A DNA stretch of 64,000 nt from a virus: IMG/VR virus record IMGVR_UViG_3300045988_073070. The stretch is one strand, 5' to 3'. The notes below the pieces were generated by a model. It saw only the letters and a list, made by a program, of their open reading frames with translations. It was not told the DNA's origin and did not search any database. The translations under genes and the position numbers were made by a program. Below, in pieces: positions 107 through 62,773 of this stretch. Each line of letters starts with the position of its first letter. Position 1 is the stretch's first letter.

Positions 107-1585
107 ATGGCATTCATACCGAGCAAATATCAAAAGACCGTTTACACTTACATCAAGATAGGTAAAGGCAATGCGGTTATTGATGCAGTAGCAGGTTCAG
201 GGAAATCTACTACCATAGTGAATGCGCTCAAACAAATACCGAGCGCAAAGAGAGTTTTGTTTTTGGCTTTCAATAAAGCTATCGTTGAAGAACTGAAAAT
301 TAAAATCGGAAATCTACCAAACGTTGATATTAAAACACTTCATAGTTTGGGAGCTTCTATTTGTATGAGGAATTTGAATTGCCAAATACAAGATGATAAG
401 TATAAGATTTGGGTTAATAACGGAGTAAATTATAGCAATCTTGTTCCGACAGTCCCACTTCCAGATGAGCAAATGGGTACGTGGAAGCAAAATATCTTAA
501 AACTTATAGACCTTGGCAGAGTTAATTTGGTAAAGACGAAAGAAGCGTTGGAAGATTTATCATATAAACATGATATAGACCTTCTTGATAACGAAGCCGA
601 CCTTGCCTTGAAGGGTATTCAATGGGGAGAGCGAGAAACGGCAACCATTGATTTCACGGATATGATATATTTCCCGAACGTTAAACAATTGAAGATATTC
701 CAATATGATTGGGTATTCATAGACGAGTGCCAAGACTTAAATGCGGCTCAAAGGGAATTGTTCTTGAAATGCGTTAAGCCGAAAGGAAGATTTATTGCGG
801 TGGGAGACCCACGCCAAGCAATATACGGATTTGCTGGAGCTGACGTTGAAAGTTTCAATCTCTTGAAGAAGATTCCGAATACAGTGAAACTTCCACTATC
901 GGTTTGTTATCGTTGCGATGCCGACATTATAAGTTTAGCCAAAGAGATAGTGCCTCAAATAGAAGCACGTGATGGAGCACCTTCGGGAGAAGTAAACCGA
1001 GATTGTAAGATGGCAGATATTCAAGACGGTGATATGGTGCTTTGTCGTCTTTCAGCTCCTTTGGTTAAGTTGTGTATGAAATATATCGGTTCAGGCGTTA
1101 AGGCTTATGTCAAAGGAAGGGATATTGGAACCAACCTTATAAATATGATTAAAAAGACCAATCGCAAGCAGATTAAGGACGTTGAAGAACGTCTCCAGAA
1201 GGAGTTATCACGAATAGTAGGAAAAGTGGTTACAAGGCAGAAATGCACTGAGCAGGAAGCGAGAGAAAGCGATGTGTACAAGAACTACGAAGATAAGGTC
1301 AAAGCAATCGAAGTCCTTTCAGAAGGATTAACAACCGCAAAAGAGGTCATTGACCGCATTGATACAATATTCTCCGATGGAAATAAATCGGGAATATGCT
1401 TGAGCACAATCCATAAATCGAAAGGATTGGAAGCCGACCGAGTATTCATCATATGTGAAGATAAGTTATATTTCAAGCCTTGTATGAATGTTCCTTGGAT
1501 GGCTGAGCAGGAAAAGAATTTGGTGTATGTAGCTTATACGAGGGCAAAACATTTTCTTGGATTCGTTAAGGATTTTGTAGCATAA
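107..1585 (+). CDS. UvrD/PcrA-like superfamily 1 DNA helicase
   Basis: Walker A AVAGSGKSTT and Walker B FIDECQD. GDPRQAIYGFAGA motif. C-terminal STIHKSKGLEADRVFI and YVAYTRAK motifs typical of UvrD-like helicases. Confidence 0.85.
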   Translation: MAFIPSKYQKTVYTYIKIGKGNAVIDAVAGSGKSTTIVNALKQIPSAKRVLFLAFNKAIVEELKIKIGNLPNVDIKTLHSLGASICMRNLNCQIQDDKYKIWVNNGVNYSNLVPTVPLPDEQMGTWKQNILKLIDLGRVNLVKTKEALEDLSYKHDIDLLDNEADLALKGIQWGERETATIDFTDMIYFPNVKQLKIFQYDWVFIDECQDLNAAQRELFLKCVKPKGRFIAVGDPRQAIYGFAGADVESFNLLKKIPNTVKLPLSVCYRCDADIISLAKEIVPQIEARDGAPSGEVNRDCKMADIQDGDMVLCRLSAPLVKLCMKYIGSGVKAYVKGRDIGTNLINMIKKTNRKQIKDVEERLQKELSRIVGKVVTRQKCTEQEARESDVYKNYEDKVKAIEVLSEGLTTAKEVIDRIDTIFSDGNKSGICLSTIHKSKGLEADRVFIICEDKLYFKPCMNVPWMAEQEKNLVYVAYTRAKHFLGFVKDFVA

Positions 1586-4491: not shown

Positions 4492-4833
4492 ATGCCATCA
4501 CAAAATACAGACCCAAAAGTTTGGAAATATTTCAAGACAGGAGACATTGTGAGAGATTCCGATGATAGTGTCTGGGGAAAGACCAAATTTGAAATAACGG
4601 GTTTTCACGGGAATTGGTATTGTCCTATGTTATCTACAAATATATGCGGCAAGTTCTATCCCAGCGGAAATCCTCAAAGATGTAACTTGGGTGTTCGAGA
4701 AGCAAAGTTAATATCAGCACCACGCAGACCGTTCCGAAATATGCCGAAGAAAGTTTTGATAAAACTAATGGGCAAAGGAAACGTTGAAGCCAAGCGAGAG
4801 TTCATGATGAGATTAAATACAAAAAGTTTATAA
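4492..4833 (+). CDS. Hypothetical protein
   Basis: ORF of 113 aa packed tightly before the next gene. No recognisable motif. Confidence 0.5.
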   Translation: MPSQNTDPKVWKYFKTGDIVRDSDDSVWGKTKFEITGFHGNWYCPMLSTNICGKFYPSGNPQRCNLGVREAKLISAPRRPFRNMPKKVLIKLMGKGNVEAKREFMMRLNTKSL

Positions 4834-4835
4834 AT

Positions 4836-5993
4836 ATGTTTGAGAATGCAGCATGGTACGACAAGTTACCTGACGAAAACTTGGAAGTGTACGAGCCTCA
4901 TTTGAGATTGTTCTTTGAGACTATGTACGAAAGACAAATGATTTGGAAACGTAGATTCATTGAGAAGAAAGAAAGACCTTGGACAGATAACAAGATATTT
5001 CAAGAATCGAAGTTTACCAACGTATATCGGGAATTGGACAGAAATAGTCAATGGCAAATCAAAAACATTCTCCTTGACGATTCTTTGACTTTGAAGAATC
5101 TTATTTGGAAGATGATGGTTTTCCGTTTCTTCAACAATCCTGAAACGTTCATGTTCGAGCCGAAAGGAAAGACCTTACAACCGAGCTTATTTGGAGCACC
5201 TATCAAGTCAGGACTTAAACAAGCTCAATCGAAAGACGAATTGATTGCGGCAACGAAGTGGAGAAACGGCATTCCAGATTATGACGAATATGATGAGGAC
5301 GAGTTCAGCCGATTTATTGCGGGCGTTCGCAGTTCGGGTCAGAATCCTTACACGACCGCTTACTTGATAAACTCTCAAGCTACACCTGGTCAGCCGAGAG
5401 ACTATTGTTATACAAGGGTGGTTATTCCTACGTTACATAAGAACATGGATAAGCTCATTGCTAAGGTGATGACAGCGAAGAAGCCAGAAGATATTATTGA
5501 GTACTTGAAAACGTTCCCTGCGGTGGCGGATTTTATTGCTCACGAGTTCTATCAGGACTTCACATACATACCGAGATACACCAACCGTAAATTCATGAAA
5601 TTTGACCAAAACGACTTTACGAATGTTGGGCCAGGTGCGTCAATTGGTATTCGTCTTATCTATCCGAGTTTGAAAACCGTTCGTGAGCAAAAGAAAGCTA
5701 TCTATTGGTTGAAAGACGAAGCCGATAAATGGCTTGAAAAGATAGGAAAGGAAAAGGGTGAGATGTTTCCTTATCTTGGTTGGGATTCGGCTGATGGAGA
5801 ATATTTCATATATGACTTGAAGAAGCAAAAGGAATATTCAAAGGATTCTGATGCCCGTATGTATAGTGGCATAACTCTTCACCAAATTGAGATGTGGTTA
5901 TGTGAGTTCCAGAAATATTGGAAGATGATTATTGGGGAAGGAAAACAGCGTTCCAAATTCGTTCCGAGAAGTAAAACCATTATAAAGAAATAA
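4836..5993 (+). CDS. Candidate thymidine-hypermodification protein (aGPT-pyrophosphorylase / 5-hmdU DNA kinase helical-domain-like)
   Basis: The N-terminal pattern YERQMIWKRRFIEKKERPWTDNKIFQESKFTNVYRELDRNSQW matches my recollection of the R-x-I-W-x-R-R...PWT-D...F-T/C-N-V-Y/x-R-E-x-D-R signature of this family. There is no P-loop. Not verified by search. Confidence 0.45.
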   Translation: MFENAAWYDKLPDENLEVYEPHLRLFFETMYERQMIWKRRFIEKKERPWTDNKIFQESKFTNVYRELDRNSQWQIKNILLDDSLTLKNLIWKMMVFRFFNNPETFMFEPKGKTLQPSLFGAPIKSGLKQAQSKDELIAATKWRNGIPDYDEYDEDEFSRFIAGVRSSGQNPYTTAYLINSQATPGQPRDYCYTRVVIPTLHKNMDKLIAKVMTAKKPEDIIEYLKTFPAVADFIAHEFYQDFTYIPRYTNRKFMKFDQNDFTNVGPGASIGIRLIYPSLKTVREQKKAIYWLKDEADKWLEKIGKEKGEMFPYLGWDSADGEYFIYDLKKQKEYSKDSDARMYSGITLHQIEMWLCEFQKYWKMIIGEGKQRSKFVPRSKTIIKK

Positions 5994-6000
5994 AAGCCTT

Positions 6001-6336
6001 ATGTATGCGAAGAAGCTAACAACGATGAAAGAGCCGTTGGATATTGATTTACAACTTGCCGCAGCTGAAATTGATACTTCCGTACCGAGAATGAAATATC
6101 TGTCGAATACAGTCATGGAAACTGCCTTCGATATAGAAGCGTTCAAACTACTTTGGGAAGACATACGCACCAACGCTCCTGAAATTACGAGCCTTGACGG
6201 AAATACCGTTTTGGTAGAGTATCTTGAAGAAGCCATAATCATTCACGAGAGCTTGGAGAACAAATACATTATATTCGATTCCTCAATCACTCATAAGGTT
6301 GAGGAAGCACTTAACAGTTATAAGGAAGTAAATTGA
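6001..6336 (+). CDS. Hypothetical protein
   Basis: ORF of 111 aa, co-directional and tightly packed. Confidence 0.5.
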   Translation: MYAKKLTTMKEPLDIDLQLAAAEIDTSVPRMKYLSNTVMETAFDIEAFKLLWEDIRTNAPEITSLDGNTVLVEYLEEAIIIHESLENKYIIFDSSITHKVEEALNSYKEVN

Positions 6337-12807: not shown

Positions 12808-12999
12808 ATGAACAACAAGAAGGAAGTTGTAAAGAATAATCATTTCATTCCTTCTCCGTTTCCAGCTGTTACCGCTTATGAGAATGAATTTGTAAAAGTG
12901 TGGAACAATAATACGGCTGAGGCAGTTGCAGAGGTTTTGAAATATATGGCCAAAGCTACTGCCTTCGCTATTAAAGAAACGAAGGAGACAAAGAAATGA
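12808..12999 (+). CDS. Hypothetical small protein
   Basis: ORF of 63 aa. Its stop overlaps the next start (ATGA). Confidence 0.4.
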   Translation: MNNKKEVVKNNHFIPSPFPAVTAYENEFVKVWNNNTAEAVAEVLKYMAKATAFAIKETKETKK

Positions 13000-13928
13000 T
13001 ATTCAATCAGGCACAGATTCAAGATATGCTATCAATACTCAAAAGGTATGAGTTGTTGTTTATAGCAGGACAGTTGGGATTGGATTTTCTCTCTCAATCG
13101 GATAAGGATATTTTGATTGCCGCAGGGGTGGACTTGGATAAGTTCAAAAACCAAAAAGGAATAATTGAACATGCCTTTCTTTTCGGAATCCTTGCTGAAG
13201 CTATCGGAGACAAGAGAGCTCAAAATATGACTTATGCTCAATTCAAGAAGTTTCTTGCTTCGGGAAATTTCATACCATTGACCGAAGAAGAAGAATTTGC
13301 CTTGCAAACTTTGAAGAATCGGGCATACACCGATATTACGAGTTTGGGAAGTAGAATGAGAACGGGGTTGAGCAATAACATTCTACGAAACAATCAACAG
13401 CAATCGGTTTTAGTACAACGGATGATTAAGCAAAAGGCAATTAAAGCAGCCGAGCTACGAGTTGGAGCGAGAGGACTTGCGGCAGACCTTGCTGAAACGT
13501 CAAAGGATTGGGAAGTTGATTGGTTGAGAATTGCGTACTATCTTACTCACGAAGCGTTCAATTCAGGACGTGCTCAAAGTATATTAAAGAATTACGGAGC
13601 TGATGCTGAGGTTTACTTCGATGTGTACGAGGGTGCTTGTAAGCATTGTCGTGAACTTCTTTTAACCGACCCAGAGGACGTAAACAGTGAGCCGATTGTG
13701 TTTAAGCTCAAGGACATTATAGCAAACGGCAATAATATTGGTAGAAAGGTTGCTGAATGGAAAGCTACCATATCACCTATACACCCATATTGTCGTTGTA
13801 CTATTAATCACAAAAAGAAGGGTTTTGCTTGGAATCCTGACCTGCGTGCTTTCACAACTCCGATAAAGAAAGTATCTAAAAATCCAAAGTTAAAGAATGT
13901 AAAGTTAAACATAAAAGTTTCAAAGTAG
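12996..13928 (+). CDS. Head morphogenesis protein (Mu F / SPP1 gp7-like)
   Basis: C-terminal ISPIHPYCRCT matches the P-x-H-P-x-C-R-C signature of the Phage_Mu_F family. Located in the head module. Confidence 0.6.
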   Translation: MIFNQAQIQDMLSILKRYELLFIAGQLGLDFLSQSDKDILIAAGVDLDKFKNQKGIIEHAFLFGILAEAIGDKRAQNMTYAQFKKFLASGNFIPLTEEEEFALQTLKNRAYTDITSLGSRMRTGLSNNILRNNQQQSVLVQRMIKQKAIKAAELRVGARGLAADLAETSKDWEVDWLRIAYYLTHEAFNSGRAQSILKNYGADAEVYFDVYEGACKHCRELLLTDPEDVNSEPIVFKLKDIIANGNNIGRKVAEWKATISPIHPYCRCTINHKKKGFAWNPDLRAFTTPIKKVSKNPKLKNVKLNIKVSK

Positions 13929-13932
13929 TATT

Positions 13933-14889
13933 ATGGCTAAAAAGAAAATTGTACAACAGCCACCGTTCACGGTTTTAATAGAGCCGACCGAAGGCTGTAA
14001 TTTGGGGTGTTCATTTTGTGGGTTAAGAGGTATGCGTGAAAAAGGAACGAAGCCTTGGAATCATATGAGCACTAAAACTGCAAAGCGTATTGCGACCGAA
14101 ATAGCGAAAGCTGGTTGGAATAGCAAAATTGTATTCGCTCAACATGGAGAGCCAACGTTGAATCCGAAAATCTTTGAGATTGTGAAGATATTCCGAGAAG
14201 CGTTGCCAAATAGTATTTTCCATATGTACACAAATGGTTATGCGGCAAACCGAGCCGAAGACACCGAAGCGTATGTGAGCGAGTTGTTTGCGTCTGGAAT
14301 TAACAATCTTATCGTGGATTGCTATACAGACGAAGGAGATTGGAACTTCATCAATAAGTTAGAGAAGGAAAGTTGGAATATTGAATTTTACACAAAGGGA
14401 GTTCCGTTGTACACTAACAATCGCAAACCAAGAATCCTTTTACTTCCACCGATTAAGACCGACCATAAAATAACAAGAAAACTTGCTAACCATTGCGGAG
14501 CTGCCGCACCTTTGGATAAGTCTTATAACAATAAGCGTTGCGCCATGCCGTTCCGTGAGTTAGCTTTCCGATACGATGGCAACGTTTCTTTATGTTGCGA
14601 TGACTTTCGTGGGGAATATCCGATTGCTAATATCAATGATATGGGAATCGTTGAACTTTGGAATCACGAACGTTTTCAAGCAGCAAGGATTATGTTGTAT
14701 AATTACAGCCGTCATTTCAGACCATGCAGCGGTTGTACTAACATTAGTATGCGTGTAGGATTCTTGCCTGATAGTTCGGGTCAAGAGAGCCTTCCAGAAA
14801 TTACTCCAGAAATCAAGAAGTTAGCACAAAGTGTGCACAAAGATGGCTTCTTGTCTCCTATAATCATAAAAAGGAAATGGGAAAAATAA
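13933..14889 (+). CDS. Radical SAM enzyme with a SPASM/twitch-like C-terminal Cys cluster
   Basis: CX3CX2C motif in EPTEGCNLGCSFCG. GGEP-type SAM motif QHGEPTLNP. C-terminal cysteines in CAMPFRELAFRYDGNVSLCCDDF and RPCSGCTN. Confidence 0.85.
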   Translation: MAKKKIVQQPPFTVLIEPTEGCNLGCSFCGLRGMREKGTKPWNHMSTKTAKRIATEIAKAGWNSKIVFAQHGEPTLNPKIFEIVKIFREALPNSIFHMYTNGYAANRAEDTEAYVSELFASGINNLIVDCYTDEGDWNFINKLEKESWNIEFYTKGVPLYTNNRKPRILLLPPIKTDHKITRKLANHCGAAAPLDKSYNNKRCAMPFRELAFRYDGNVSLCCDDFRGEYPIANINDMGIVELWNHERFQAARIMLYNYSRHFRPCSGCTNISMRVGFLPDSSGQESLPEITPEIKKLAQSVHKDGFLSPIIIKRKWEK

Positions 14890-15563
14890 AACAAAAATAT
14901 CTCATAATAGCTCCGCATTCCGATGATGCTCTTTTTTGTTGTTCTCACGTTTTGTTCTTCCCTGAATATGAAGTTCAGGTTTTGACCGTAGAGAATGACG
15001 AGAAACGAGTTTCAGAAGATGCGAAGTTATTCGAGTTCTTAAACATTCCCTTTCATCATTTGGAGCTTGATTTTAAGGATGAAAGTTATTACGGATATAA
15101 TAAGGCATACCCGAAGGGAATAACATTGGAGCATGCTTACAAATATCTGAATGAATACTTCGGGCGTGAGACTTTGAGCGAGATAGAAGACACATTGATT
15201 GAATGGGCAAGAAAGTTTTTGAAGAAAAATAAAGGGTATAAGATTCTTGCCCCTTGGGGAGTTGGACACCCTTTTCACTTCTTTGTTCGAGAAACATTAC
15301 AATCGGGATTCTCCGATATGGACTATTATCGGGAATTTCCTCACTCATACAAGAGACGTTCTCAAGCGCAAGTTGAAGAACAAAAGAAAGATTGGTATTT
15401 AGAACGTTCAGTACCAGTGGAAGAGTTTGCTGATATTAAGTGGAAATTAGCATACAAGTTCTATCGTTCTCAATCGGGTTTACTCTTTTACGAACAGGGT
15501 TATATAAAGAAAAACCTGCCTGAAGAAATATGGCGAAGATATGATTCAGACTTACCATTTTAA
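14877..15563 (+). CDS. PIG-L / LmbE family deacetylase
   Basis: N-terminal YLIIAPHSDDALF matches the (A/P)HPDD(E) motif, and a second His motif GVGHPFH is present. The start overlaps the radical SAM gene by 13 nt. Confidence 0.7.
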   Translation: MGKIKQKYLIIAPHSDDALFCCSHVLFFPEYEVQVLTVENDEKRVSEDAKLFEFLNIPFHHLELDFKDESYYGYNKAYPKGITLEHAYKYLNEYFGRETLSEIEDTLIEWARKFLKKNKGYKILAPWGVGHPFHFFVRETLQSGFSDMDYYREFPHSYKRRSQAQVEEQKKDWYLERSVPVEEFADIKWKLAYKFYRSQSGLLFYEQGYIKKNLPEEIWRRYDSDLPF

Positions 15564-15568
15564 GGATT

Positions 15569-17008
15569 ATGAGAATACTTATAGCAGATTTTGAGATTGC
15601 TAAATACGGTGGAATCGTAGAGCATGTAACAGCGAAGGTCAAGGCATTAAAAGCTCTTGGCCACGTTGTCGATATAGCTCAATTGTCCGCTGCCGCAACA
15701 ACTCAAAAAACTTATGATAACAAAGTGAAGAAATTTGAGGATGGTACTTTCAGTGAAGGCTTGAAGGTTAATTCTCAAAATGGCGGTTATGAATACGATG
15801 AAGCAACTGGATATTGGAAGAACAATTATTATGGATTCTTTCTTCCACCCAGTAACCGTATCGGAGTATTTGAAAAGAACGCTTTGGAACGATGGCATAA
15901 TCTTGTTGAGAAGTTCGATTTGATTATGTGGAACTTTATGCCTACGAAGTCAAGTGCTTGGGGAAAGGGTGATTTTTCTTTTTGGTGGAAGTTCTATGAC
16001 CTTCCTACCGATAAGATAAAGCAAATATTCATTGCTCACGATGCGTACTTTGATGTACGTGCTTCAAACGTTACTGCCCTACGGGAGAAGATATTGTTTA
16101 TAGAGTGTGCTCATATTGCTGCATATCGTTGTTGCGAGCATCTGGGAATACCAAGAACGTTATTGTTGAATCCGAGATACCTTGAAGAAGGAGCGAGAAT
16201 GCCAATCAAGATGATGCAGAAGCGTGAAATTGACTTCTTTGCCGCTCATATATTCAAGTCTATGAAGCACGTTGACGACCTTATCAGAGCCGTACCGCAT
16301 TTCAATCAAAAATCGGAATACTCCGTACAGATAGCAGGTTCAGGAATAGAACAAGCCTATATGGTAGCTCCTACGAAATGTAAAGAGCCATACAAGATAA
16401 GTAGAAAGCGTGACCCAGATATTGATTCAGAATATCTTGGACAAAAGATTTGGGATGTAGCGGAACAATATGGCATGGAATATCTTGGTCAGATAAGCTC
16501 CGAAGAAGTAAACCGAAAGTTGAGGAACGCTAAATTTGCGATTGACCCAAGTTGGGCTGCTCATTATTCTCAATATTGTCGTACTCATATAAACGGCTTT
16601 ATTATCGAAGCTATGTTGAATGGGTGTTATCCTGTTTTGCGTGATTATAGAGGACTGATGAAGGGCGTGGACGAGGATTTATATGACCCGTTGTTTGAAA
16701 ACATCAACGCAATCATTATTCCATGGAACGCTACACCGAAGGAATTTGCGAAGGCTTTGAAGAAAGCCGAGAGAATGAGCCCAGCCAAATATTTGAAAGA
16801 TACCAGAGAGAATTTTGCTTTGGTTCACGAGTTATTCAACGCAAAGAATAACATGAAAGAAGTCATTCGACTTGTTAAGGGTGGAAAGAAACTTGTAAAC
16901 AAAGAGCTTGAAAAAGGTAAGGATTCACCAACGGTTAAGAAAATTACAAAAGAGATAATGGAAGATTTTTACCATATTGATTTACCGATTGAGTGGGAGA
17001 CTGATTAA
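15569..17008 (+). CDS. GT-B fold glycosyltransferase (GT4-like)
   Basis: N-terminal MRILIADFEIAKYGGIVEHV...LKALGHVV, and C-terminal INGFIIEAMLNGCYPVL, which matches the E-x-F-G...EAM-x-x-G-x-PV motif of Glycos_transf_1. Confidence 0.7.
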   Translation: MRILIADFEIAKYGGIVEHVTAKVKALKALGHVVDIAQLSAAATTQKTYDNKVKKFEDGTFSEGLKVNSQNGGYEYDEATGYWKNNYYGFFLPPSNRIGVFEKNALERWHNLVEKFDLIMWNFMPTKSSAWGKGDFSFWWKFYDLPTDKIKQIFIAHDAYFDVRASNVTALREKILFIECAHIAAYRCCEHLGIPRTLLLNPRYLEEGARMPIKMMQKREIDFFAAHIFKSMKHVDDLIRAVPHFNQKSEYSVQIAGSGIEQAYMVAPTKCKEPYKISRKRDPDIDSEYLGQKIWDVAEQYGMEYLGQISSEEVNRKLRNAKFAIDPSWAAHYSQYCRTHINGFIIEAMLNGCYPVLRDYRGLMKGVDEDLYDPLFENINAIIIPWNATPKEFAKALKKAERMSPAKYLKDTRENFALVHELFNAKNNMKEVIRLVKGGKKLVNKELEKGKDSPTVKKITKEIMEDFYHIDLPIEWETD

Positions 17009-17068
17009 GCCCAGTTATTATCTAACCATATGTAACGATAAATCATAAATGTTTAATAATCGTAAAAT

Positions 17069-19072
17069 ATGGACGAAATTAAAAAAGCACGCCAAGTAGG
17101 CGACCAACACCCATCAAAGCCTTGGGTGTGGACGGAGTACAAGCCTGGCAAGTTTGATTGGAGACCTATGAAGGGAAAGAAGGCAACAACGGCTTCTTCT
17201 GACGATGATTCGGGAGATGACGACAATGCTGGAGCAACCAAGAAAACTCCGTCAAAGCCTTCTGCCGCACAAGTAGCAGGAGCGAAGGCGAAAGCTGGCA
17301 AACCCATGAACTCTCAGCAACTGTTAGTTTGGGCTCAAAAGACTTCTGATGATAACCTTCTCAAAGTAGCTAACAGCAAGAACGGAAACGCTCAAATGCG
17401 AAAGATAGCGTATGACGCTTTAGAAGCAAGAGGGTTTGATATGTCGCAAGTTGATACTTCGGGAACGCTTGCCCAACTTATGAAGATGACAGGCAAAGGA
17501 AGTCCGAAAGCTCCGACAACGGGAGATGATGACGATGAGGTTGATGTAGCCGATACAAACGAAGAAGCCGAAGTTGATATTGATGACGATTCCGATGGAG
17601 ATTCAGACGGCATCAAAATTACGGAAAAGTGGTATCTTGACAAAAATGACGACCGTGTCAAAAAGATGTTCAATCTGAAAACAAAAGAAGGACGTATCAA
17701 ATACGACCAGTTTGTTTATCGGATGAAGAAAAAAGAGAAGGATTACAAAGACCCAGTTGAAGTAGTTCAGGACTTGAACGAACAATATTTGGAGTTCCTT
17801 GATAACGATGAACAACGGTTCATGATTTCAGCAGGTGGAGCTGGTATTGGTAAATCATACGGCTTCAATAAAATGGCTGAACTCCTTAATATGAAACCGT
17901 TCGAGGAAGGAGACTCACCAGGGGATGGAGATTACGACATATTTGAAGCTCCTGACGTTAATTCAGGCAAACAGCTTTTGAATATTCTCAAAGCCCATAA
18001 CGGTAAAATCATTGTATTTGATGATAACGATAAAGTGTTGAAGAGAGCCGACTGCGCAAGTGTTATGAAGAAGGCTACTGCTACAACAGGCAGACGTATC
18101 GTTGGCGACCCAGATGATATCAAACAGAACTTTGAATTCACTGGACGTATCATTATCATGACCAACAAAGACCTTTCGCAGTTATCCGAGAACGAAGACA
18201 CGAAAGCGATTATCAGCCGTGCAATGATGGTATCGGAAATCTACATGACCGTACCAGAAACAATCCAAGTAATGGAGAGCCGTTATCAGGATTATGAATT
18301 CAAACAAGCTCCAAGACTTGACGATGAAGGAGAAGATAAGAAGGAGCGTGATGAAATTTTGAGTCTTATCAAAAAGAATCAGAAGAACATTGACCCTGCT
18401 CAATTCACAACCCGTACTTTCCAAGAGATTTTGGTGAACAAAAGAAAAGTGGACAACGCAAATGAAAAGCGTTCCAATCCAGCGTTTGCTGCTCTTATCG
18501 GTACAAAGAATAAGGATTGGAAAGAAGTGGCATTGGGAGTTCTCACGAAAGCTGCTGTGAATGATATTGAAGGAAGCTCCGAAGATACTTTTGAGAAAGG
18601 AGAGGACGATGAGTTGGAGAAGGCTGAGGATATTATTTTGGGAGATGAATTCAAAAAAGGGTATTCTGCTGATGACGGAGTTGATTACACCGTAGATGAT
18701 GAAGAGGAAGAAGACATGGATGAAGTCACAAAGGCTGAACTGCTCCTTCTTGGCGATGATTACGGAGTTTTTGAAAAAGCTGAATTTTCCGAGAAACAAC
18801 GCAAAAGTTTGGCTAAGAAAAAAGAAGCCATGCCCGATGGTTCATTCCCAATTCGTAATACTTCGGATTTGAAGAACGCAATTCAGGCGGTTGGAAGAGC
18901 GAAAGACCCAGCAAAAGCGAAAGCATGGATTAAGAAACGTGCGAAAGCTCTTGGAAAGGAAGATTTGCTGCCCGACACTTGGAAAGCGAACACAAATGAC
19001 TTCTTTGGTGAAGATATGGACTTGCAAAAAGCTCAAAGCATTCTTGGAATTGGAAGCGGAATAATGGGATAA
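17069..19072 (+). CDS. Acidic protein with an AAA-like P-loop NTPase core
   Basis: Walker A ISAGGAGIGKSYG, Walker B KIIVFDDND, sensor-1-like RIIIMTNKD. Long D/E tracts. C-terminal motif MPDGSFPIRNTSDLKNAIQAVGRAKDPAKAKAWIKKRAKALG. Confidence 0.55.
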   Translation: MDEIKKARQVGDQHPSKPWVWTEYKPGKFDWRPMKGKKATTASSDDDSGDDDNAGATKKTPSKPSAAQVAGAKAKAGKPMNSQQLLVWAQKTSDDNLLKVANSKNGNAQMRKIAYDALEARGFDMSQVDTSGTLAQLMKMTGKGSPKAPTTGDDDDEVDVADTNEEAEVDIDDDSDGDSDGIKITEKWYLDKNDDRVKKMFNLKTKEGRIKYDQFVYRMKKKEKDYKDPVEVVQDLNEQYLEFLDNDEQRFMISAGGAGIGKSYGFNKMAELLNMKPFEEGDSPGDGDYDIFEAPDVNSGKQLLNILKAHNGKIIVFDDNDKVLKRADCASVMKKATATTGRRIVGDPDDIKQNFEFTGRIIIMTNKDLSQLSENEDTKAIISRAMMVSEIYMTVPETIQVMESRYQDYEFKQAPRLDDEGEDKKERDEILSLIKKNQKNIDPAQFTTRTFQEILVNKRKVDNANEKRSNPAFAALIGTKNKDWKEVALGVLTKAAVNDIEGSSEDTFEKGEDDELEKAEDIILGDEFKKGYSADDGVDYTVDDEEEEDMDEVTKAELLLLGDDYGVFEKAEFSEKQRKSLAKKKEAMPDGSFPIRNTSDLKNAIQAVGRAKDPAKAKAWIKKRAKALGKEDLLPDTWKANTNDFFGEDMDLQKAQSILGIGSGIMG

Positions 19073-19075
19073 AAT

Positions 19076-21442
19076 ATGGAAGATATAAGAAAGGCATTGG
19101 AAACAATAGCTCTTCAAAATGCGAAGGGCAAAGTGTCTGATGACCTTCTTATAAAGGCTTGCGATGCTTACAAGATTAAGTCCGAGACGTTTGACGATTC
19201 TTATGACTATCATGTATGCGTCGCAAAGTCTTTATATGACCACATAAATGGTATAGAGCCGAACGATGAAATCAATAAGGCTATCGTGCCAGGTCAAACG
19301 AAGGTTGTTGATGGAGTGGTGTATATTTACACTGCCACTCCGAACGCAAAGACACAATATGATTGGCGTGTTCTAAAACCAAAGACCGCATCAAAAGTGG
19401 GGCGTCAGGTAGATGCGGCAAAAGCCGATTCAAAACAGAAGTACGTCAATGAATTATTCCCCAATGATTTAAGCACGTTAAAGGTGATTAAAAAGTTAGG
19501 TGGAAGTACGGGAGCGCAACTTGTTGAAGATAGCAGAGGCAATCAGTACGTGATGAAGAAGGGCAGTAATACGTCCAACGAGCACGTCAAGTCCGAGTAT
19601 ATGACCAACCAGTTGTACGACCTTCTTGGTTTACGAGTTCCCGACTTTGAATTGTACGAGGAAAACGGAGAAGCAATATTGTTGTCAAAATTCATACCGA
19701 TGACCCGTATGCCGTCTGCAAAAGATTATGATGAGATGGCGAAGGGTTTTGCGGTTGATGCGTTGTTAGCTAACTGGGATATTTATCAAAACGACAATTG
19801 CTTAATTGATTCGGCTGGTAGAGTTATCCGAGTGGATAATGGCGGTGCTATGGAGTATCGTGCTCAAGGTTCAAAGAAAACTTTTGGTAAGAGTGTTACA
19901 GACTTCAACTCAATGTTGAACTACAATCCGAGTGTTCTTGGAAATCTATCGTTACAAGATAAAGTGAATCAGTTGGATGAGCTTTTGAAGAAACGTGATG
20001 ATGTAATAGGATTCTTGGTTGAAAGTAATTCTAATTTAGTAGGAGTATTTGATGGGCGTTTCAAAGACCTTGAAAATATCAAGAATCAACTTGAAGCGAA
20101 AATAAACAAGAATCAACGCAAGATTACTCCGAGAAAGCTCAAGAGTGATGCGGACATGTACAGAGAGTTATCCGAAGATGAATTGGATGCTATCTGGAAA
20201 GCTCAACAAGGTAGTGATTATTATAGCAAACTCAATGCTACGAATTACACCGTTGGTTGGGAGCTTTTGAGTGCTATTTGCGAAGAACGAGGATTCACTG
20301 CCCGTCCAGAGGTTGTAGATGAAACGGAGTATTGGAATAGAGTAAAGGGTTCAAAGTATCAAATATTTCGTGGGCTATCGTCTGGAAGCGGACATGATGC
20401 GGAATATTATGCTGATGACTTCCGATATAATGACAACTGTTTCTATGGAACTATTGGTATTCACGGTTCAGGACTTTATTTCCACGTGAACGATGGTACT
20501 GGTAATAAGGACAACACAAAGACTACTTTCAAAAATTCCGATGCTTATAAGAACGCAAGGAGTTATGCAGGTAGTTCGGGAGAAATACTTGAGTGCGCTC
20601 TTGACCCCAAAGCAACTGTTGCATTAGTTCCCGACTTGAAGAAAGAGATTCTTTCAATGGTAACATTCGACAAAGCAGCAGTTGATGCGAAGCAGCTTGA
20701 GATTGATTCTCTTAACAAGACCTTATCGCAGCAGCAGGATGACCTTAACAATATAACGGATAAGACCGAGAAGGACATCAAAACAAAGATGCACTGGGAT
20801 AACGATGTTCTTGTTATGCACCAATTGGAAATCGACAATACTGACTGGGGAGCTACGGACGCAGACGGCAATCCAGATTATCCGAGCTTTGAGGATTTTG
20901 TTGAAAAGAAGATGTTTGATTGGGTTAAGAAGAATGGCGGTACTGTTACAGAGAAGGGGAAAGGAAGCGATGTGTATATTTTGAAACTTCCCAATTCCAA
21001 AGAGCCTTTCATGATGAGCCGTTTCCAATACGAGAACAACGCAATCAAAAGAAAGAATGCGTTTTCAAAGCCGTACAACTATCCAGTGAAACGATTTTCC
21101 GATTGGTTGATGAAAGAGCATTACAACGTTATTAACAAAAAGGTTGAGAAGGCTATCGACCAAATTGGTTCAAAGGTTCAAGAGATACAAGCCGACATAA
21201 AACTCACCAAGACCGAGTTGAATACAAAGATTGGTGAGATGAACGACTTGAAGAAGACAAAAGACCCAAATGGGGATATTCTTTCTGGAATCTACGAATC
21301 AGTCAGAAAAGGAAGCAAAGAAGCTATTGGAACATACGCAGCTCTCAAGGGCATTGACGCCATAGTAGAGCCGCATGGAAACGGTGGGCCAAATTCCTTT
21401 ATGATTGTTCTTAATCGTAGTAAAGTAATTGTTAAAAGATAA
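19076..21442 (+). CDS. Large multidomain protein: atypical kinase-like domain plus ADP-ribosyltransferase-like domain
   Basis: Kinase-like string: GGSTGAQLV...YVMKKG...SEYMTNQLY...DALLANWDIYQNDNCLID...IRVDNGG. ART/PARP-like string: YQIFRGLS...GIHGSGLYFH...SSGEILECAL. Coiled-coil C-terminal third. Confidence 0.35.
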   Translation: MEDIRKALETIALQNAKGKVSDDLLIKACDAYKIKSETFDDSYDYHVCVAKSLYDHINGIEPNDEINKAIVPGQTKVVDGVVYIYTATPNAKTQYDWRVLKPKTASKVGRQVDAAKADSKQKYVNELFPNDLSTLKVIKKLGGSTGAQLVEDSRGNQYVMKKGSNTSNEHVKSEYMTNQLYDLLGLRVPDFELYEENGEAILLSKFIPMTRMPSAKDYDEMAKGFAVDALLANWDIYQNDNCLIDSAGRVIRVDNGGAMEYRAQGSKKTFGKSVTDFNSMLNYNPSVLGNLSLQDKVNQLDELLKKRDDVIGFLVESNSNLVGVFDGRFKDLENIKNQLEAKINKNQRKITPRKLKSDADMYRELSEDELDAIWKAQQGSDYYSKLNATNYTVGWELLSAICEERGFTARPEVVDETEYWNRVKGSKYQIFRGLSSGSGHDAEYYADDFRYNDNCFYGTIGIHGSGLYFHVNDGTGNKDNTKTTFKNSDAYKNARSYAGSSGEILECALDPKATVALVPDLKKEILSMVTFDKAAVDAKQLEIDSLNKTLSQQQDDLNNITDKTEKDIKTKMHWDNDVLVMHQLEIDNTDWGATDADGNPDYPSFEDFVEKKMFDWVKKNGGTVTEKGKGSDVYILKLPNSKEPFMMSRFQYENNAIKRKNAFSKPYNYPVKRFSDWLMKEHYNVINKKVEKAIDQIGSKVQEIQADIKLTKTELNTKIGEMNDLKKTKDPNGDILSGIYESVRKGSKEAIGTYAALKGIDAIVEPHGNGGPNSFMIVLNRSKVIVKR

Positions 21443-57385: not shown

Positions 57386-58585
57386 ATGGAAATTCCGAAA
57401 AACAATTGCTTTTTTCCCGATTATGGAGTGGCGAAAGTAGAAACGTTTGGGATGTTGTACCCTGTAATTAATGATTACATCTTAACCAACAAACAAAAAG
57501 AAGAAAGCCGAGCAGGAGATGTAAAGGAACTGCTGGACGTCAAAACAATCATAACCAATCCTTATCAACGTTGCGTTGGCGGTTATGGTAGAGACATCAA
57601 TGTATTCTTTCTTCTTGCCGAAGCTATGTGGATAGCTGTTGGAAGAAAAGATGTAGAGTTTTTGGAAATATTCAATTCACGTATGAAGGACTTCAGTGAT
57701 GACGGAAAGACTTTCCACGCACCATACGGATTCCGATTGCGTCATTGGGGTATTCGTACCGAAGACAAATATGAAAGCGGAGTTAATGCCGCTCAAGGAT
57801 ATGACCAAGTAGCAGATGCAATACGGCTCTTGTCCGAGAATCATAACACACGTCAGGTAGTTATGGCAATATGGAATCCGAGTTTTGACTTGGGAGCGAA
57901 AAGCAAGGACATTCCTTGTAACGACCTTGTGATGTTGAAGATTCGTGATGGTAAGATGGTCACCACAATTCAGAATCGGAGTAATGACCTTCATTGGGGA
58001 TTGCCGACAAATATATTCCAATTCTCTTTCTTGACCGAGATTATGGCGACTTGTCTTGGTATCGAATTGGGAACACAAACACACAACTCTCAAAGTCTTC
58101 ATATTTATGATTGGAACGGTACGGCAAAGAAGATGCAAGAAATCTTCAAGGCTTCGGGAACGGGGCATTCACTTTATGAAGCTACGCCAGCCGAAGCGAA
58201 ACCGATGGACTTTGCTTTCAATCATGAGGTTGCAATTAACCGTCTCCGTGAAGTAGATTCACATTTGAATATCGTTATCGAAAATCTTCTCAGGATAAAG
58301 AATGGAGAAGATGAGATACAAGACGAAATTAAGCAGCTACAAGACTTTTCAACCTTCTTCTTTAATACTTACCAGCTCCTGAAAATATACGTGCTCTACA
58401 AGCATAAAAACAAGCTGGCTAAAACGGATATTGAAAAGGATGCTATTCGCAAAACAGCGATAGCCGAAATTGAACTGTTGGAAGCCGAAGGAGCAAAAGA
58501 TTGGGACATGGCAATACTTGCAAAGAACTTCTTTCACGCAAGGTTAAGTAAACCAATGAAGCATAAATATCTTGGGAAGCTATGA
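57386..58585 (+). CDS. Thymidylate synthase superfamily enzyme, probably a deoxypyrimidine-monophosphate hydroxymethylase
   Basis: TS-fold motifs FHAPYGFRLRHWG, NTRQVVMAIWNP, DIPCND (catalytic Cys) and NRSNDLHWGLPTNIFQF, then SLHIY. The sequence is divergent and carries a helical C-terminal extension of about 100 aa. Confidence 0.7.
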   Translation: MEIPKNNCFFPDYGVAKVETFGMLYPVINDYILTNKQKEESRAGDVKELLDVKTIITNPYQRCVGGYGRDINVFFLLAEAMWIAVGRKDVEFLEIFNSRMKDFSDDGKTFHAPYGFRLRHWGIRTEDKYESGVNAAQGYDQVADAIRLLSENHNTRQVVMAIWNPSFDLGAKSKDIPCNDLVMLKIRDGKMVTTIQNRSNDLHWGLPTNIFQFSFLTEIMATCLGIELGTQTHNSQSLHIYDWNGTAKKMQEIFKASGTGHSLYEATPAEAKPMDFAFNHEVAINRLREVDSHLNIVIENLLRIKNGEDEIQDEIKQLQDFSTFFFNTYQLLKIYVLYKHKNKLAKTDIEKDAIRKTAIAEIELLEAEGAKDWDMAILAKNFFHARLSKPMKHKYLGKL

Positions 58586-62131: not shown

Positions 62132-62773
62132 ATGTTAAGCAAAATTATTTTAGGCAAGTACCTGCAACGACTTGACAACATCAAGCAATGGCAGGAAATG
62201 GACGTTTTCAAGGAAGAAAGCGTGAGTCAACATTCGTATAAAGATTCAATTTTTGCGAGAGTATTATTGGAAGATATATTCGGCAACAATCAAAGTCCGA
62301 AGGTAGTTCAGTTCAAATTAGATGTAGTTACAAGAACACTTCTTCACGACTGGGATGAAGCCTTGATTCTACGAGACATGTCTCACGAGACCAAATACAA
62401 TCCTTACAACGGAGAGGAAATCAGAAGGTGCTTAAATGCCCTTTCCAATCATATTGCGTTGAATGAGTTCCGAGAGGTTGACGAGGATTCTTGCGACACG
62501 GATTCGTCACGTATGATGTGGGGAATGATTTGCGCTTGTCCAGAGCCAGTAAAGAGTTTTGCTAAACTATGTGATTGGATTGCGTTATTCTTTTATATGC
62601 AAAGGGAAAAGCATCTGGGCAATAAGGACTTGGAGAAATCTTGGAACATTGCGGCAAGTAAATTTCCCGAAGCGATTGACAATGTAATAAATGTGTTGAA
62701 GGGATATTTCCCGAACGAGAAATTGAACTTTGATGAATTGTATAACTTAAAAACAATTTTTGAAGATGAGTAA
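62132..62773 (+). CDS. HD-domain phosphohydrolase (YfbR-like 5'-deoxynucleotidase)
   Basis: VSQHSY ... LLHDWDEALI gives the H...HD...E metal-ligand pattern of the YfbR-type HD family. Confidence 0.55.
   Translation: MLSKIILGKYLQRLDNIKQWQEMDVFKEESVSQHSYKDSIFARVLLEDIFGNNQSPKVVQFKLDVVTRTLLHDWDEALILRDMSHETKYNPYNGEEIRRCLNALSNHIALNEFREVDEDSCDTDSSRMMWGMICACPEPVKSFAKLCDWIALFFYMQREKHLGNKDLEKSWNIAASKFPEAIDNVINVLKGYFPNEKLNFDELYNLKTIFEDE

Follow-up and report, generated by a model that had tools for sequence, protein, structure and literature searches.

What does the gene at positions 4836 to 5993 of this viral DNA encode, and does its presence mean that the phage hypermodifies its thymine? Through thymidine hypermodification, among other means, phages protect their DNA against nucleases, and bases of this kind can block sequencing and amplification. 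The established logic runs from a kinase through a Pplase2 transferase to tailoring enzymes; a second "helical" paralogue, HMUDK_hel, occurs in every model system and has never been given a function. A first-pass annotation of the 64,000-nucleotide stretch analyzed here (the window) had placed the gene with the helical family of aGPT-pyrophosphorylases and 5-hmdU DNA kinases. The observation is confirmed, and the interpretation finds partial support: the family is a known one, and its context here is kinase-less and non-canonical. Since both the DNA kinase and a proven transferase are missing, we infer that the phage probably changes the hydroxymethyl-uracil of its DNA by a non-canonical route.

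The gene is a single open reading frame (ORF) with an ATG start that spans exactly these positions and encodes 385 amino acids. Its source is an uncultured gut-type phage of approximately 98 kb. Gene callers report the identical protein sequence on at least 24 metagenome contigs, and relatives are encoded on 128 IMG/VR stretches and make up 618 protein clusters at 90% identity. In a Pfam hmmscan the protein scores 165.2 bits for HMUDK_hel (PF18723; E = 2.7e-48; the gathering cut-off is 25), the only family to reach E ≤ 1; the same domain is precomputed on all of its close relatives. The signature that had suggested the helical family (ERQMIWKRRF, RPWTDNKIF and KFTNVYRELDRNSQW) is indeed present at residues 32–73. 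Among the PHROGs the protein matches phrog_2396 best (E = 6.5e-43), a family without an assigned function. NCBIfam gave no match to the ORF, a megablast search found no match to the locus among GenBank phages, and sequence searches of the PDB with the protein and with a profile of 96 family sequences were both empty. The AlphaFold2 (AF2) model is all-alpha (pLDDT 90.4, pTM 0.89). In a Foldseek search of BFVD its best structural match is SP10 gp186 (E = 1.9e-13, TMq 0.68); PhiW-14 C9DG43 (E = 1.4e-6) and a "Pplase1" protein model (E = 1.4e-4) also match. Together, the members from phiRSL1, a Nodularia phage, a Microbacterium phage, SP10 and PhiW-14 match with E-values of 1e-13 to 1e-6 and TM scores of 0.55–0.72, and nothing significant was found among 350,542 PDB chains. 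The protein is thus a bona fide member of HMUDK_hel, called "aGPT-Pplase I" in some papers, a family whose members are mostly stand-alone proteins.

Which residues does the family keep? We examined conservation in 96 diverse HMUDK_hel representatives clustered at 50% identity and in a lineage set of 121 members. Eight residues are invariant in all 96 representatives (R33, N62, R65, D68, F233, G267, C356 and K360, in the numbering of our protein), and all are present here; the invariant basic residues of the family include R33, R65, R97 and K360. W49 and F60 are at least 90% conserved across the representatives, as are E352, E357 and Y361. Within the lineage, R33, W49, F60, N62, R65 and D68 are kept in every one of the 121 members, C356 and E352 in 120 of them, and E357 in 120–121. 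D241 does not vary in a reference alignment of six sequences or in any of the 121 lineage members. The insert predicted to be disordered is missing from most family members, and homologues match in two stretches that skip roughly residues 106–140. The spacing of E352 and C356 (E-x3-C) is that of the essential pair E243/C247 in the Pplase2 motif VETVLCKWK (PMC8989533, PMC11472151); there, alanine substitution of either residue abolishes activity (PMC8989533). The coordinates of these features are listed in the table with those of the neighboring and candidate pathway genes.

Features of the HMUDK_hel gene and of candidate pathway genes in the window
Feature	Coordinates	Strand	Basis or remark
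Stand-alone HMUDK_hel (PF18723) ORF, putative DNA pyrimidine-C5 modifying enzyme	4836..5993	+	Pfam, AF2, Foldseek BFVD
N-terminal conserved block, residues 33-68 (R33, W49, F60, N62, R65, D68)	4932..5039	+	Family conservation
Predicted disordered insert, residues 112-133	5169..5234	+	pLDDT <50; gapped in reference alignment
Helix-hairpin-like motif and Asp, residues 226-241, FPAVADFIAHEFYQD (family consensus ipGvG.FlAyE..D)	5511..5558	+	Conservation
Putative catalytic helix I351-E352-M-W-L-C356-E357-F-Q-K360-Y361 (E-x3-C)	5886..5918	+	Conservation; Pplase2 spacing
Upstream 113-aa partner ORF, conserved	4492..4833	+	Stop codon 2 nt before the HMUDK_hel ATG
Downstream 111-aa ORF	6001..6336	+	Kept near HMUDK_hel in relatives
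Thymidylate-synthase homologue, dUMP-hydroxymethylase type (would make 5-hmdUMP)	57386..58585	+	Pfam Thymidylat_synt
YfbR-like HD-domain 5'-deoxynucleotidase	62132..62773	+	Pfam PF12917 E=1.5e-11; PHROG 7076 (dATP triphosphohydrolase label)
Radical SAM / SPASM protein	13933..14889	+	Pfam Radical_SAM E=3e-13, SPASM E=1e-11; PHROG 1802
GT-B (GT4-like) glycosyltransferase candidate	15569..17008	+	Sub-threshold Pfam Glyco_trans_1_4 and Glycos_transf_1, E~2e-4

Is the protein then one of the amino-acid:DNA transferases (aGPT-Pplase2, PF18724), represented by M6 gp51, ViI gp247, PhiW-14 gp109, PaMx11 gp46 ("PUGT") and the 15599 Pplase2? Here the first-pass annotation, which had named both families, holds for HMUDK_hel and fails for Pplase2. 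PF18724 does not match the protein at E ≤ 1, phmmer finds no similarity to M6 gp51 (E = 1.6), and hhalign of our family against a 36-sequence Pplase2 profile gives a probability of 1–1.5% even with permissive settings. The protein is therefore not a member of PF18724. The two families nevertheless have several things in common: both are all-alpha, both are encoded in 5-hmdU phages, and both carry a hairpin-Asp motif followed by an E-x3-C helix. Hhalign pairs our hairpin motif with the Pplase2 segment GFGPWIGFKIA-D162 and brings the E-x3-C motifs, whose conservation is equivalent, into the same order, in an alignment that is not statistically significant; given that probability we claim co-linearity of motifs, not homology. 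The folds resemble each other weakly (TM 0.28–0.43). Against the solved structures (PUGT, 8z2m/8z2n; 25qc), the PUGT chains rank 2, 4 and 14 of all PDB chains in Foldseek, with weak scores (E = 0.9–3.2, TM 0.28–0.41), and a BFVD Pplase2 model gives E = 1.6 and TM 0.35/0.43. The N-terminal halves do not align, so any assignment of an Asp as metal ligand in our protein is a guess by analogy, and the Thr that follows the metal-ligand Glu of Pplase2 (E-T) is replaced by Met. Whereas Pplase2 enzymes have a proven substrate (5-PmdU) and proven donors, HMUDK_hel proteins have neither; the clade is a sister of the amino-acid:DNA transferases that is itself uncharacterized.

We are interested in whether the phage encodes the other steps of the canonical pathway. 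The kinase was sought with Pfam on all plus-strand ORFs of at least 100 amino acids, with a profile of four reference kinases and with Walker-A scans, none of which finds a P-loop 5-hmdU DNA kinase in the window, as had been noticed at first pass. Nor did one turn up outside the window, where the first pass had allowed for it, in the genome as closed through sister genomes. Approximately 14.3 kb of the phage's own genome was covered via sister genomes that are about 91% (one of them 91.5%) identical in DNA, which closes the circle, and the kinase family PF18748 is absent from the window, its flanks, the gap region in the sister genomes and the relatives (Pfam scans and precomputed tables). A DNA-anchor scan of JGI metagenomes aimed at the phage's own gap region brought up only one of the sister contigs. 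The best hits of the four-kinase profile (E = 0.05–0.12) are all the P-loop of a UvrD-like helicase. The P-loops that we do find belong to a helicase, RecA, DnaB, TerL and a few uncharacterized ORFs: one of 667 amino acids at 17069–19072 (GGAGIGKS, phrog_1250) and, in some relatives only, a 194 amino acid protein (L077:17846-18430, phrog_4182), which might conceivably be a kinase, and a 158 amino acid protein with PNK-like motifs. The latter two are missing from a sister genome that still carries HMUDK_hel. Neither Pfam nor a PF18724-type profile built for this analysis finds a Pplase2 in the genome as closed through the sisters, and no PLP enzyme appears in any Pfam table. Of the canonical ViI/M6-type set (kinase, Pplase2, hydroxymethylase and a tailoring enzyme, the last being a PLP decarboxylase, an rSAM isomerase or a FAD oxidase/acetyltransferase), the hydroxymethylase alone is present. 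In this phage HMUDK_hel shows co-occurrence with a dUMP hydroxymethylase and not the fusion to, or co-occurrence with, a PF18748 kinase that gave the family its name; elsewhere the fusion exists in both orders (Goe26/SP10 type and P0185).

The supply of 5-hmdU is better represented. The thymidylate-synthase (TS) homologue, noted earlier as a TS-like hydroxymethylase, is of the dUMP-hydroxymethylase type: it scores 162 bits against Goe26 "thyA" (SP10-like) and 119 against M6 gp58, compared with at most 71 against any TS of known structure. Its catalytic Cys ("PCN") is retained, as is the Asn ("LPTN") that specifies the base, and its closest cultured matches are SPO1 gp29 (40.7% identity), SP8 and SP10 (about 40%). 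A gene of the dUTPase/dCTP-deaminase (DCD) family lies just outside the window. The HD nucleotidase might serve to deplete dTMP or other canonical nucleotides; orthology to the M6 gp59 HD hydrolase is undetectable (E = 0.064). Given these three genes, for an SPO1-gp29-like hydroxymethylase of dUMP, a member of the dUTPase/dCTP-deaminase family and an HD nucleotidase, the phage very likely replicates with 5-hmdU. Its polymerase is of the DnaE type.

Other genes might contribute. The two small conserved ORFs that flank HMUDK_hel may be its partners. Neither has a Pfam or PHROG match. A homologue of the 113 amino acid ORF stands directly upstream of HMUDK_hel in three relatives (L078, 75% identity; L079, 45%; L068, 30%), and one of the 111 amino acid ORF is found directly downstream in L079 (30%) and, in L078 (50%), downstream at a distance of about 1 kb. 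The Radical SAM/SPASM gene is conserved in relatives and sits in the structural module; a tailoring role linked to HMUDK_hel would be speculative, as it would be for the GT-B-like candidate. The latter carries two motifs ("KYGGI" and "NGFIIEAM..G.YPV") that are invariant in 19 relatives, and its single-sequence AF2 model is unusable (pLDDT 34.5). The glycosyltransferase route offered earlier as a replacement for the kinase comes down to this one sub-threshold GT1-like ORF and is not supported. Comparison with the PDB was uninformative for the GT-like ORF, for the 667 amino acid P-loop ORF and for a 447 amino acid ORF adjoining the TS gene; PHROGs run on the unknown ORFs identified TerL, the rest being of "unknown function."

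How does this gene set compare with known systems? In the Ackermannviridae, PhaxI gp086 and phiMAM1 MAM_083 (ViI gp160-type proteins) belong to the same family (PF18723 at 278–286 bits), and so does Vibrio phage K356_0187 by phmmer and by the family profile built for this analysis. Like our protein they are stand-alone and approximately 400 amino acids long (phmmer E about 1e-26), and they keep the same invariant residues, E-x3-C included, at just 25–27% identity. The phages that encode them also have a TS homologue adjoining the kinase; the SFP10 and K356 loci include a 5-HMUDK kinase, and ViI has two kinases and the Pplase2 gp247 (PMC8989533), while our phage has neither enzyme. In SP10 gp186 and Goe26_01450 (phmmer E about 1e-24) HMUDK_hel and the P-loop kinase PF18748 form one covalent fusion, unlike the stand-alone protein here; SP10-type phages, like ours, lack Pplase2 (PMC5889632, Table 3).

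A kinase-less precedent is the cultured Ralstonia phage RP13. Its g120 ("aGPT-Pplase I") is a stand-alone HMUDK_hel protein (E = 2.4e-61 to the family profile), and by profiles its genome has an HMase-type TS and neither 5-HMUDK nor Pplase2; a dUTPase, a dCMP deaminase and an HD protein are annotated there as well. The DNA of RP13 is heavily modified, with 5HMUDK "not detected" (bioRxiv 10.1101/2025.03.26.645540). Only three proteins are common to these two unrelated phages at E < 1e-4: the dUTPase/DCD protein, the HMase-type TS and HMUDK_hel. The differences are considerable. RP13 g120 is only 22% identical to our protein, and the small flanking ORFs have no counterpart at its locus. RP13, with 171 kb, belongs to the SP-15/YerA41 group, whose defining trait is a PolA that carries an N-terminal UDG-like domain and which has glycosyltransferase gene blocks (PMC12686479); the polymerase here is of the DnaE type.

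On balance we lean towards the view that the gene encodes a stand-alone HMUDK_hel enzyme that modifies 5-hmdU DNA after replication without the canonical kinase/Pplase2 route. The family, the fold, the conserved residues, the gene content and the cultured precedent RP13 are established; substrate, chemistry and product can be sketched by analogy. 5-hmdUMP would be made by the SPO1-gp29-like hydroxymethylase, fed by the dUTPase/dCTP-deaminase-family enzyme and assisted by the HD nucleotidase, and the DNA would be replicated with 5-hmdU in place of T. The enzyme would then act on DNA before packaging: as in Pplase2, it might flip out the base and add the invariant Cys356 to the pyrimidine C6, with Glu352 and Asp68 or Asp241 serving as general acid or metal ligand. 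Departure of the C5-CH2-O leaving group would produce an exocyclic methylene, to which a nucleophile could add to give a modified thymine. Because the genome lacks both the 5-hmdU DNA kinase and Pplase2, activation has to depart from the paradigm of ViI and M6; unphosphorylated 5-hmdU could be used directly, or an unrecognized enzyme could activate it. Against the proposal, the characterized systems all use a phosphate leaving group, and no recognizable enzyme here makes one. The literature searched reports no enzymatic activity for any HMUDK_hel protein, and the hypermodification branches of ViI and M6 were reconstituted without ViI gp160 or M6 gp55 (PMC8989533). To say that the gene implies hypermodification, as the first-pass annotation did, is therefore an overstatement; besides a hypermodified T, the product could be plain T or something different.

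One rival reading leads to plain T. The same chemistry of Cys addition and exocyclic methylene, followed by reduction, could convert 5-hmdU (or 5-PmdU) to thymine before packaging. Virions of SP10, PhiW-14, M6 and ViI are free of 5-hmdU, all of it having been turned into either the hypermodified base or canonical thymine (PMC8989533), and no enzyme has been assigned to the thymine branch in any of the four. An HMUDK_hel paralogue is found in M6 (gp55), in the SP10-type fusion (Goe26; SP10 gp186) and in PhiW-14, and presumably in ViI, judging from PhaxI gp086, which we take to be the orthologue of gp160; gp160 and gp55 were not required for the hypermodification branch, and the intermediate generated by Pplase2 yields thymidine with NaBH4 (PMC8989533). 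Our phage has the paralogue without Pplase2. However, the all-alpha model leaves no recognizable hydride-donor or cofactor-binding domain. Restoration alone would mean that 5-hmdU is made only to be reverted to T, with no obvious benefit. SP10 has no Pplase2 (PMC5889632), so that the helical domain of gp186 has been proposed as a glutamyl transferase rather than a reductase, and the DNA of RP13, whose gene set is the same, carries heavy modification (bioRxiv 10.1101/2025.03.26.645540). We consider a thymine-restoring enzyme unlikely. A canonical pathway with a hidden kinase is a little easier to entertain, though still doubtful. It would need 5-phosphomethyl-dU as in ViI and M6, the phosphate coming from a non-orthologous phage P-loop protein or from a host enzyme. 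The fusions in both orientations suggest that HMUDK_hel normally works on the kinase product, the invariant R33, R65, R97 and K360 could bind phosphate, and uncharacterized P-loop proteins do exist. Yet the four-kinase profile returned nothing better than the helicase P-loop, the Pfam scans and tables show no PF18748, the 194 and 158 amino acid proteins are missing from the sister genome with HMUDK_hel, and RP13 and our phage have no such P-loop protein in common.

Two further readings would remove the protein from base modification proper. It might bind DNA or flip bases as an accessory protein, or recognize 5-hmU, U or T in DNA as a glycosylase-like enzyme of repair or exclusion. The family was earlier described as glycosylase-like with a helix-hairpin-helix (HhH) fold (PMC5889632, PMC8989533), its Pfam name says nothing more than "helical domain" of a kinase, and among the weak top PDB matches are OGG1 and AlkA, both HhH glycosylases, and a DUF2419 queuine-salvage enzyme. 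The glycosylase profiles and folds are insignificant: OGG1 and AlkA match in Foldseek at E = 3–8 with TM of at most 0.25, and no HhH-GPD family in Pfam matches the protein. A mere binding module hardly accounts for an invariant Cys that has a conserved Glu at −4, as in the Pplase2 pair. The members also mostly stand alone, and we find this reading quite improbable. The gene also lies approximately 950 bp upstream of the portal gene, both here and in a relative 47% identical, and phrog_800 ("terminase small subunit") matches residues 150–282 (E = 4.3e-7), as would fit a small terminase subunit. In GenBank, however, that label also sits on M6 gp54 and on kinases of Ackermannviridae and Vibrio phages, and for M6 gp54 and the kinases of ViI experiments have proven 5-hmdU DNA kinase activity (PMC8989533). 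Of the 511 profile positions the match covers 324–422, where kinase-helical fusions would have their helical part; phrog_2396 outscores it, and TerL is approximately 8 kb away, outside the window. The terminase reading is effectively refuted, the label being a propagated misannotation.

Returning to a stand-alone enzyme that acts on 5-hmdU DNA, it is tempting to go further, although the extended version is unlikely. HMUDK_hel proteins might be kinase-independent DNA-base transferases: together with the small partner ORFs, our protein would act on unphosphorylated 5-hmdU DNA by acid- or metal-assisted dehydration through a Cys356–C6 adduct. A novel thymine hypermodification would follow, perhaps elaborated by the rSAM/SPASM and GT-B-like proteins as in the linker-plus-sugar bases of RP13, YerA41 and SP-15, across a large clade of Bacteroidales-associated phages of approximately 100 kb. 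The phage appears to belong to a Bacteroidales-associated lineage; a Bacteroidota promoter pattern is not significantly enriched in it (7 matches versus 3.6 expected).

The clade is abundant in metagenomes and has only the HMUDK_hel paralogue and the 5-hmdU supply genes, which makes it a natural minimal system for the role of the paralogue and for kinase-free activation of 5-hmdU. If its DNA is modified, a widespread phage group, probably of gut Bacteroidales, carries a non-canonical thymine, and virome sequencing bias, evasion of host defenses and nanopore base-calling would all be affected. Experiments could start at once with RP13, which is cultured and carries the identical module of three genes.

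The gene that the first-pass annotation had read as an aGPT-Pplase or 5-hmdU DNA kinase helical-domain protein is a single ORF at exactly the tabulated positions, with the quoted motifs at residues 32–73, and at least 24 metagenome contigs encode an identical predicted protein. Pfam assigns the protein to HMUDK_hel (PF18723, "5-hmdU DNA kinase, helical domain"; E = 2.7e-48, 165 bits; the cut-off is 25), with no second Pfam family at E ≤ 1. In PHROGs it matches phrog_2396 (unknown function; E = 6.5e-43) and, weakly, phrog_800; an NCBIfam search returned nothing.

Features of the window (L078 and L079 are sequences of relatives)
Feature	Position	Strand	Remarks
113-aa ORF	4492-4833	+	stop codon 2 nt before the HMUDK_hel ATG
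HMUDK_hel protein	4836-5993	+	ATG start, 385 aa
111-aa ORF	6001-6336	+	homologues close to HMUDK_hel in L078 and L079
Radical SAM/SPASM protein	13933-14889	+	morphogenesis module
GT-B-like protein	15569-17008	+	invariant KYGGI and NGFIIEAM..G.YPV motifs
TS homologue	57386-58585	+	
YfbR-like HD 5'-deoxynucleotidase	62132-62773	+	

Two "glycosylase-like" paralogues have been told apart in thymidine-hypermodifying phages. The clade-2 aGPT-Pplases (M6 gp51, ViI gp247, PhiW-14 gp109, PaMx11 gp46/PUGT, 15599 Pplase2; Pfam PF18724, hereafter Pplase2) have been proven to transfer amino acids or polyamines to 5-phosphomethyl-dU in DNA, using an essential Cys, a nearby Glu and a divalent metal (PMC8989533, PMC11472151, PMC13458397). 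ViI gp160, M6 gp55 and the C-terminus of SP10 gp186 represent the other paralogue, which the first lysate experiments included (PMC5889632); reconstituted pathways dispense with it, and it has no assigned activity (PMC8989533). Judged by sequence, our protein sits in this second clade. With phmmer it matches PhaxI gp086, phiMAM1 MAM_083 and Vibrio K356_0187 (E ~1e-26), the C-terminal half of Bacillus phage Goe26_01450 (E 1e-24) and M6 gp55 (E 5e-13), but not M6 gp51, a Pplase2 (E = 1.6). PhaxI gp086 is the likely orthologue of ViI gp160. By Pfam, the Ackermannviridae relatives are stand-alone HMUDK_hel proteins, and the Goe26 protein is a kinase (PF18748) fused to HMUDK_hel. Such fusions are found in both orders and link HMUDK_hel to reactions of the 5-hydroxymethyl group. 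In an exhaustive search (E ≤ 0.001; 2,303 clusters at 50% identity), most homologues are stand-alone proteins of 300–350 amino acids.

Among 96 diverse aligned representatives, R33, N62, R65, D68, F233, G267, C356 and K360 are invariant, and W49, F60, R97, N100, G265, G271, E352, E357 and Y361 are at least 90% conserved. A phage lineage of 121 members keeps all of these, with one exception each at E352 and C356. The AF2 model is confident (pLDDT 90.4, pTM 0.89) and all-alpha except for one beta-hairpin; residues 112–133 form a predicted disordered insert. Compared with predicted viral structures, the model resembles SP10 gp186 (E = 1.9e-13, TMq 0.68), HMUDK_hel proteins of PhiW-14, phiRSL1, Nodularia phage and Microbacterium phage, and a "Pplase1 clade 1" protein (E = 1.4e-4); the match to a Pplase2 model is weak (E = 1.6, TM 0.35/0.43). 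The helix I351-E-M-W-L-C356-E-F-Q-K-Y shares its E-x3-C spacing with the catalytic helix of Pplase2, V-E243-T-V-L-C247-K-W-K, and hhalign pairs FPAVADFIAHEFYQD241, upstream of this helix, with the hairpin-Asp motif GFGPWIGFKIA-D162 of Pplase2. Both elements occur in the same order, at a non-significant hhalign probability of 1–1.5%, and the N-terminal halves do not align. The HMUDK_hel part of the original family call thus holds, while the proposal that the protein is itself a Pplase2 is not supported; for the same reasons, that it works like one is a reasoned inference.

The HMUDK_hel profile also gives a weak match within the latter half of the PHP domain in the DnaE of the window (58582-62121; residues ~236–306 counted from the ATG, nt ~59290-59500), at 19.5 bits and E = 2.3e-5 over 1,032 ORFs. 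Part of the match, NIDTYICEYKKYVK, resembles the putative catalytic helix, nIEhsLCEfsKYwk in the family. The segment reaches 23.6 bits, while 5,000 shuffles peak at 11.6, and DnaE matches our protein by BLASTP at E = 0.013. The likeness may be chance helix similarity or a true common motif.

The substrate would be supplied by genes of the same phage. The TS homologue keeps both the catalytic Cys and the Asn that we take, from established knowledge of TS and dCMP hydroxymethylases, to specify uracil over cytosine. Its score is 162 bits with the SP10-like Goe26 enzyme and 119 bits with M6 gp58, whereas no thymidylate synthase of known structure exceeds 71 bits. Its best cultured matches (SPO1 gp29, SP8, SP82G and SP10; ~40% identity) are annotated "dUMP hydroxymethylase" or "deoxyuridylate hydroxymethyltransferase," in agreement with the hydroxymethylase first read here from sequence. 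With a dUTPase/DCD-family protein and the HD nucleotidase, it makes up the classical pre-replicative tool-kit (as in PMC8989533). The early region, outside the window, encodes DenV (Pyr_excise; L063:5683-6135 and L077:17393-17842 in sister and related genomes), a T4 endonuclease V homologue; this pyrimidine-dimer glycosylase is noteworthy where non-canonical thymine is predicted.

The cultured Ralstonia phage RP13 (171 kb) resembles our phage in having a stand-alone HMUDK_hel protein (ORF120, E = 2.4e-61) and a hydroxymethylase-type TS homologue (ORF86, 284 bits); profiles for the 5-hmdU DNA kinase and Pplase2 find neither there, as in our phage. Its record also annotates an HD protein, dCMP deaminase and dUTPase. 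RP13 g120 has been called "aGPT-Pplase I," the kinase "could not be detected," and the DNA is so modified that amplification failed with commercial polymerases (bioRxiv 10.1101/2025.03.26.645540). RP13 is placed alongside YerA41, Carin-5 and SP-15, in which the thymines bear a linker, phosphate and oligosaccharide (PMC12686479). When all ORFs of the two phages are compared, only three proteins are common at E < 1e-4: dUTPase/DCD (1.6e-34), TS/hydroxymethylase (6.8e-32) and HMUDK_hel (4e-16). This is strong comparative evidence that the three would form one functional module.

How might the enzyme act? Our best estimate, held with slightly better than even confidence, is that it acts on 5-hmdU within replicated phage DNA: Cys356 would attack C6, the C5 substituent would leave with assistance from Glu352 and an Asp to give an exocyclic methylene, and a nucleophile would then add to it. 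A branch restoring thymine, a step without an assigned enzyme in the model phages, seems rather doubtful. A non-catalytic or glycosylase-like role is improbable; the PDB fold search gave no significant match, the weak top ones being PUGT (8z2m/8z2n, TM up to 0.41), OGG1, AlkA and DUF2419. The weak phrog_800 match carries the label "terminase small subunit," and we give a small terminase almost no credence, since the same label (PHROGs, GenBank) sits on proven 5-hmdU DNA kinases. M6 gp54 and the ViI kinases have been proven experimentally (PMC8989533), and records so labelled include M6 gp54 (L065:5022-5585), SFP10_0056 (L067:2917-3591) and K356_0184 (L066:5905-6564). This is a widespread propagated misannotation; it spills onto HMUDK_hel proteins, e.g., in Klebsiella phage phi1_175010.

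Canonical chemistry with an unrecognised kinase is unlikely in our judgment. The genome circle was closed from the window through L011, L014/L063 (IMG/VR contig 3300045988_066266, a sister bearing the HMUDK_hel gene at 91% identity) and L013, with ~14.3 kb read through sister genomes only, ~91% identical there. Over this circle, a kinase profile from four references (M6 gp54, SFP10_0056, K356_0184, Goe26 N-terminus) gave a best E of 0.12, to the P-loop of a UvrD-like helicase. Pfam found no PF18748 in the circle, including the sister-read stretch, nor do the precomputed Pfam tables of three further relatives list it; Pplase2 was likewise not found in the circle (phmmer, PF18724-type profile). 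The kinase's absence from the window, as originally noted, thus extends to the circle. The early region, including the sister-read ~14.3 kb, is variable among relatives. Some have a 158-aa kinase (AAA_33/KTI12 matches, motifs resembling T4 polynucleotide kinase), and four (L064, L072, L073, L077) have a 194-aa P-loop protein (phrog_4182, unknown function; L077:17846-18430); both are absent from the HMUDK_hel-bearing sister. Strain-variable accessory genes in otherwise collinear genomes (L006:6005-6757, L010:13548-14291, L073:9201-9677, L077:17846-18430) include NUMOD3 and GIY-YIG homing-endonuclease-like ORFs.

The 113-aa ORF lies directly upstream of HMUDK_hel in relatives whose enzymes are 86%, 52% and 47% identical to ours; neither it nor the 111-aa ORF has a family match in Pfam or PHROGs. 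In our phage and in L068, the portal gene comes soon after the block, a placement that would fit an enzyme acting just ahead of packaging. The trio (small ORF, HMUDK_hel at 52% identity, small ORF) recurs at 814-2394 of L079 (DZBD01000005.1), a 39-kb contig binned with a Sulfuricurvum sp. MAG; SulCav, the isolate name of that MAG, hints at sampling in a cave. The block hence extends beyond gut-type phages.

The HMUDK_hel family was already known, and its kinase-less state had been remarked on once, for RP13. New are a large, abundant clade of ~100-kb DnaE-encoding myophages, apparently Bacteroidales-associated, with the stand-alone enzyme as a conserved gene; the enzyme, hydroxymethylase and dUTPase as the only module common with RP13; the conserved small partner ORFs; and the family-wide E-x3-C motif. 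The finding is not surprising in kind. Its value is its bearing on a real question, the role of the second paralogue, for which the clade is a clean natural system, as it is for whether the kinase is dispensable.

The phage genome is ~98 kb long, of which the window covers ~64 kb; the identical protein is encoded on contigs of 97,993, 98,487 and 98,958 bp. All long ORFs of the window are on the + strand and include a UvrD-like helicase, FEN-type exonuclease, portal, baseplate J, sheath initiator, GH108 lysozyme, M23 peptidase, DnaB, primase and DnaE-type Pol III alpha. Outside it lie TerL, the dUTPase/dCTP-deaminase-family protein, RNase T, HU, RecA, SbcCD-like proteins, a second UvrD-like helicase, an ECF-type sigma factor, DenV and an SLT lysozyme. 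Comparison of TerL points to Bacteroides thetaiotaomicron phages as the nearest cultured relatives (38% identity), and a 97-kb relative is binned into an uncultured Bacteroidales MAG. The two UvrD/Rep-like SF1 helicases are near-equal in length (window 107-1585, 492 aa; L011:17944-19434, 496 aa). TerL has 577 aa in most genomes (L013:6560-8293) and 929 aa in some (L007:1-2576, L012:5294-8083), the longer form with Hom_end_hint/LAGLIDADG matches, which indicates a putative intein in part of the population.

Six genes embedded in the morphogenesis module (12996-21442) could modify virion proteins or DNA: the radical SAM and GT-B-like proteins, unknowns of 310, 228 and 788 aa, and a 667-aa P-loop protein (GGAGIGKS, phrog_1250). 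Relatives keep at least the 310-aa, radical SAM, 228-aa and GT-like genes. A 1,259-aa protein (45751-49530) has a SASA sialate-O-acetylesterase-type carbohydrate esterase domain (residues 838–1066, Pfam E = 1.3e-15) and is probably a tail fibre or receptor-destroying enzyme for acetylated host glycans. Three intergenic + strand sites just upstream of genes (50-80, 1628-1658, 55147-55177) share the extended consensus TTTG.(A/G)GTT...AAAATA.TC..TA.CTTTG, which presumably fits the Bacteroidota promoter type (-33 TTTG / -7 TAnnTTTG); over the whole window, its 7 matches do not significantly exceed the 3.6 expected. Intergenic blocks of up to 47 nt are exactly conserved between relatives only 79% identical (merged L014+L063 coordinates 18042-18088, 18118-18137 and 25033-25057), and TACCTTTG is present in two of the shorter ones.
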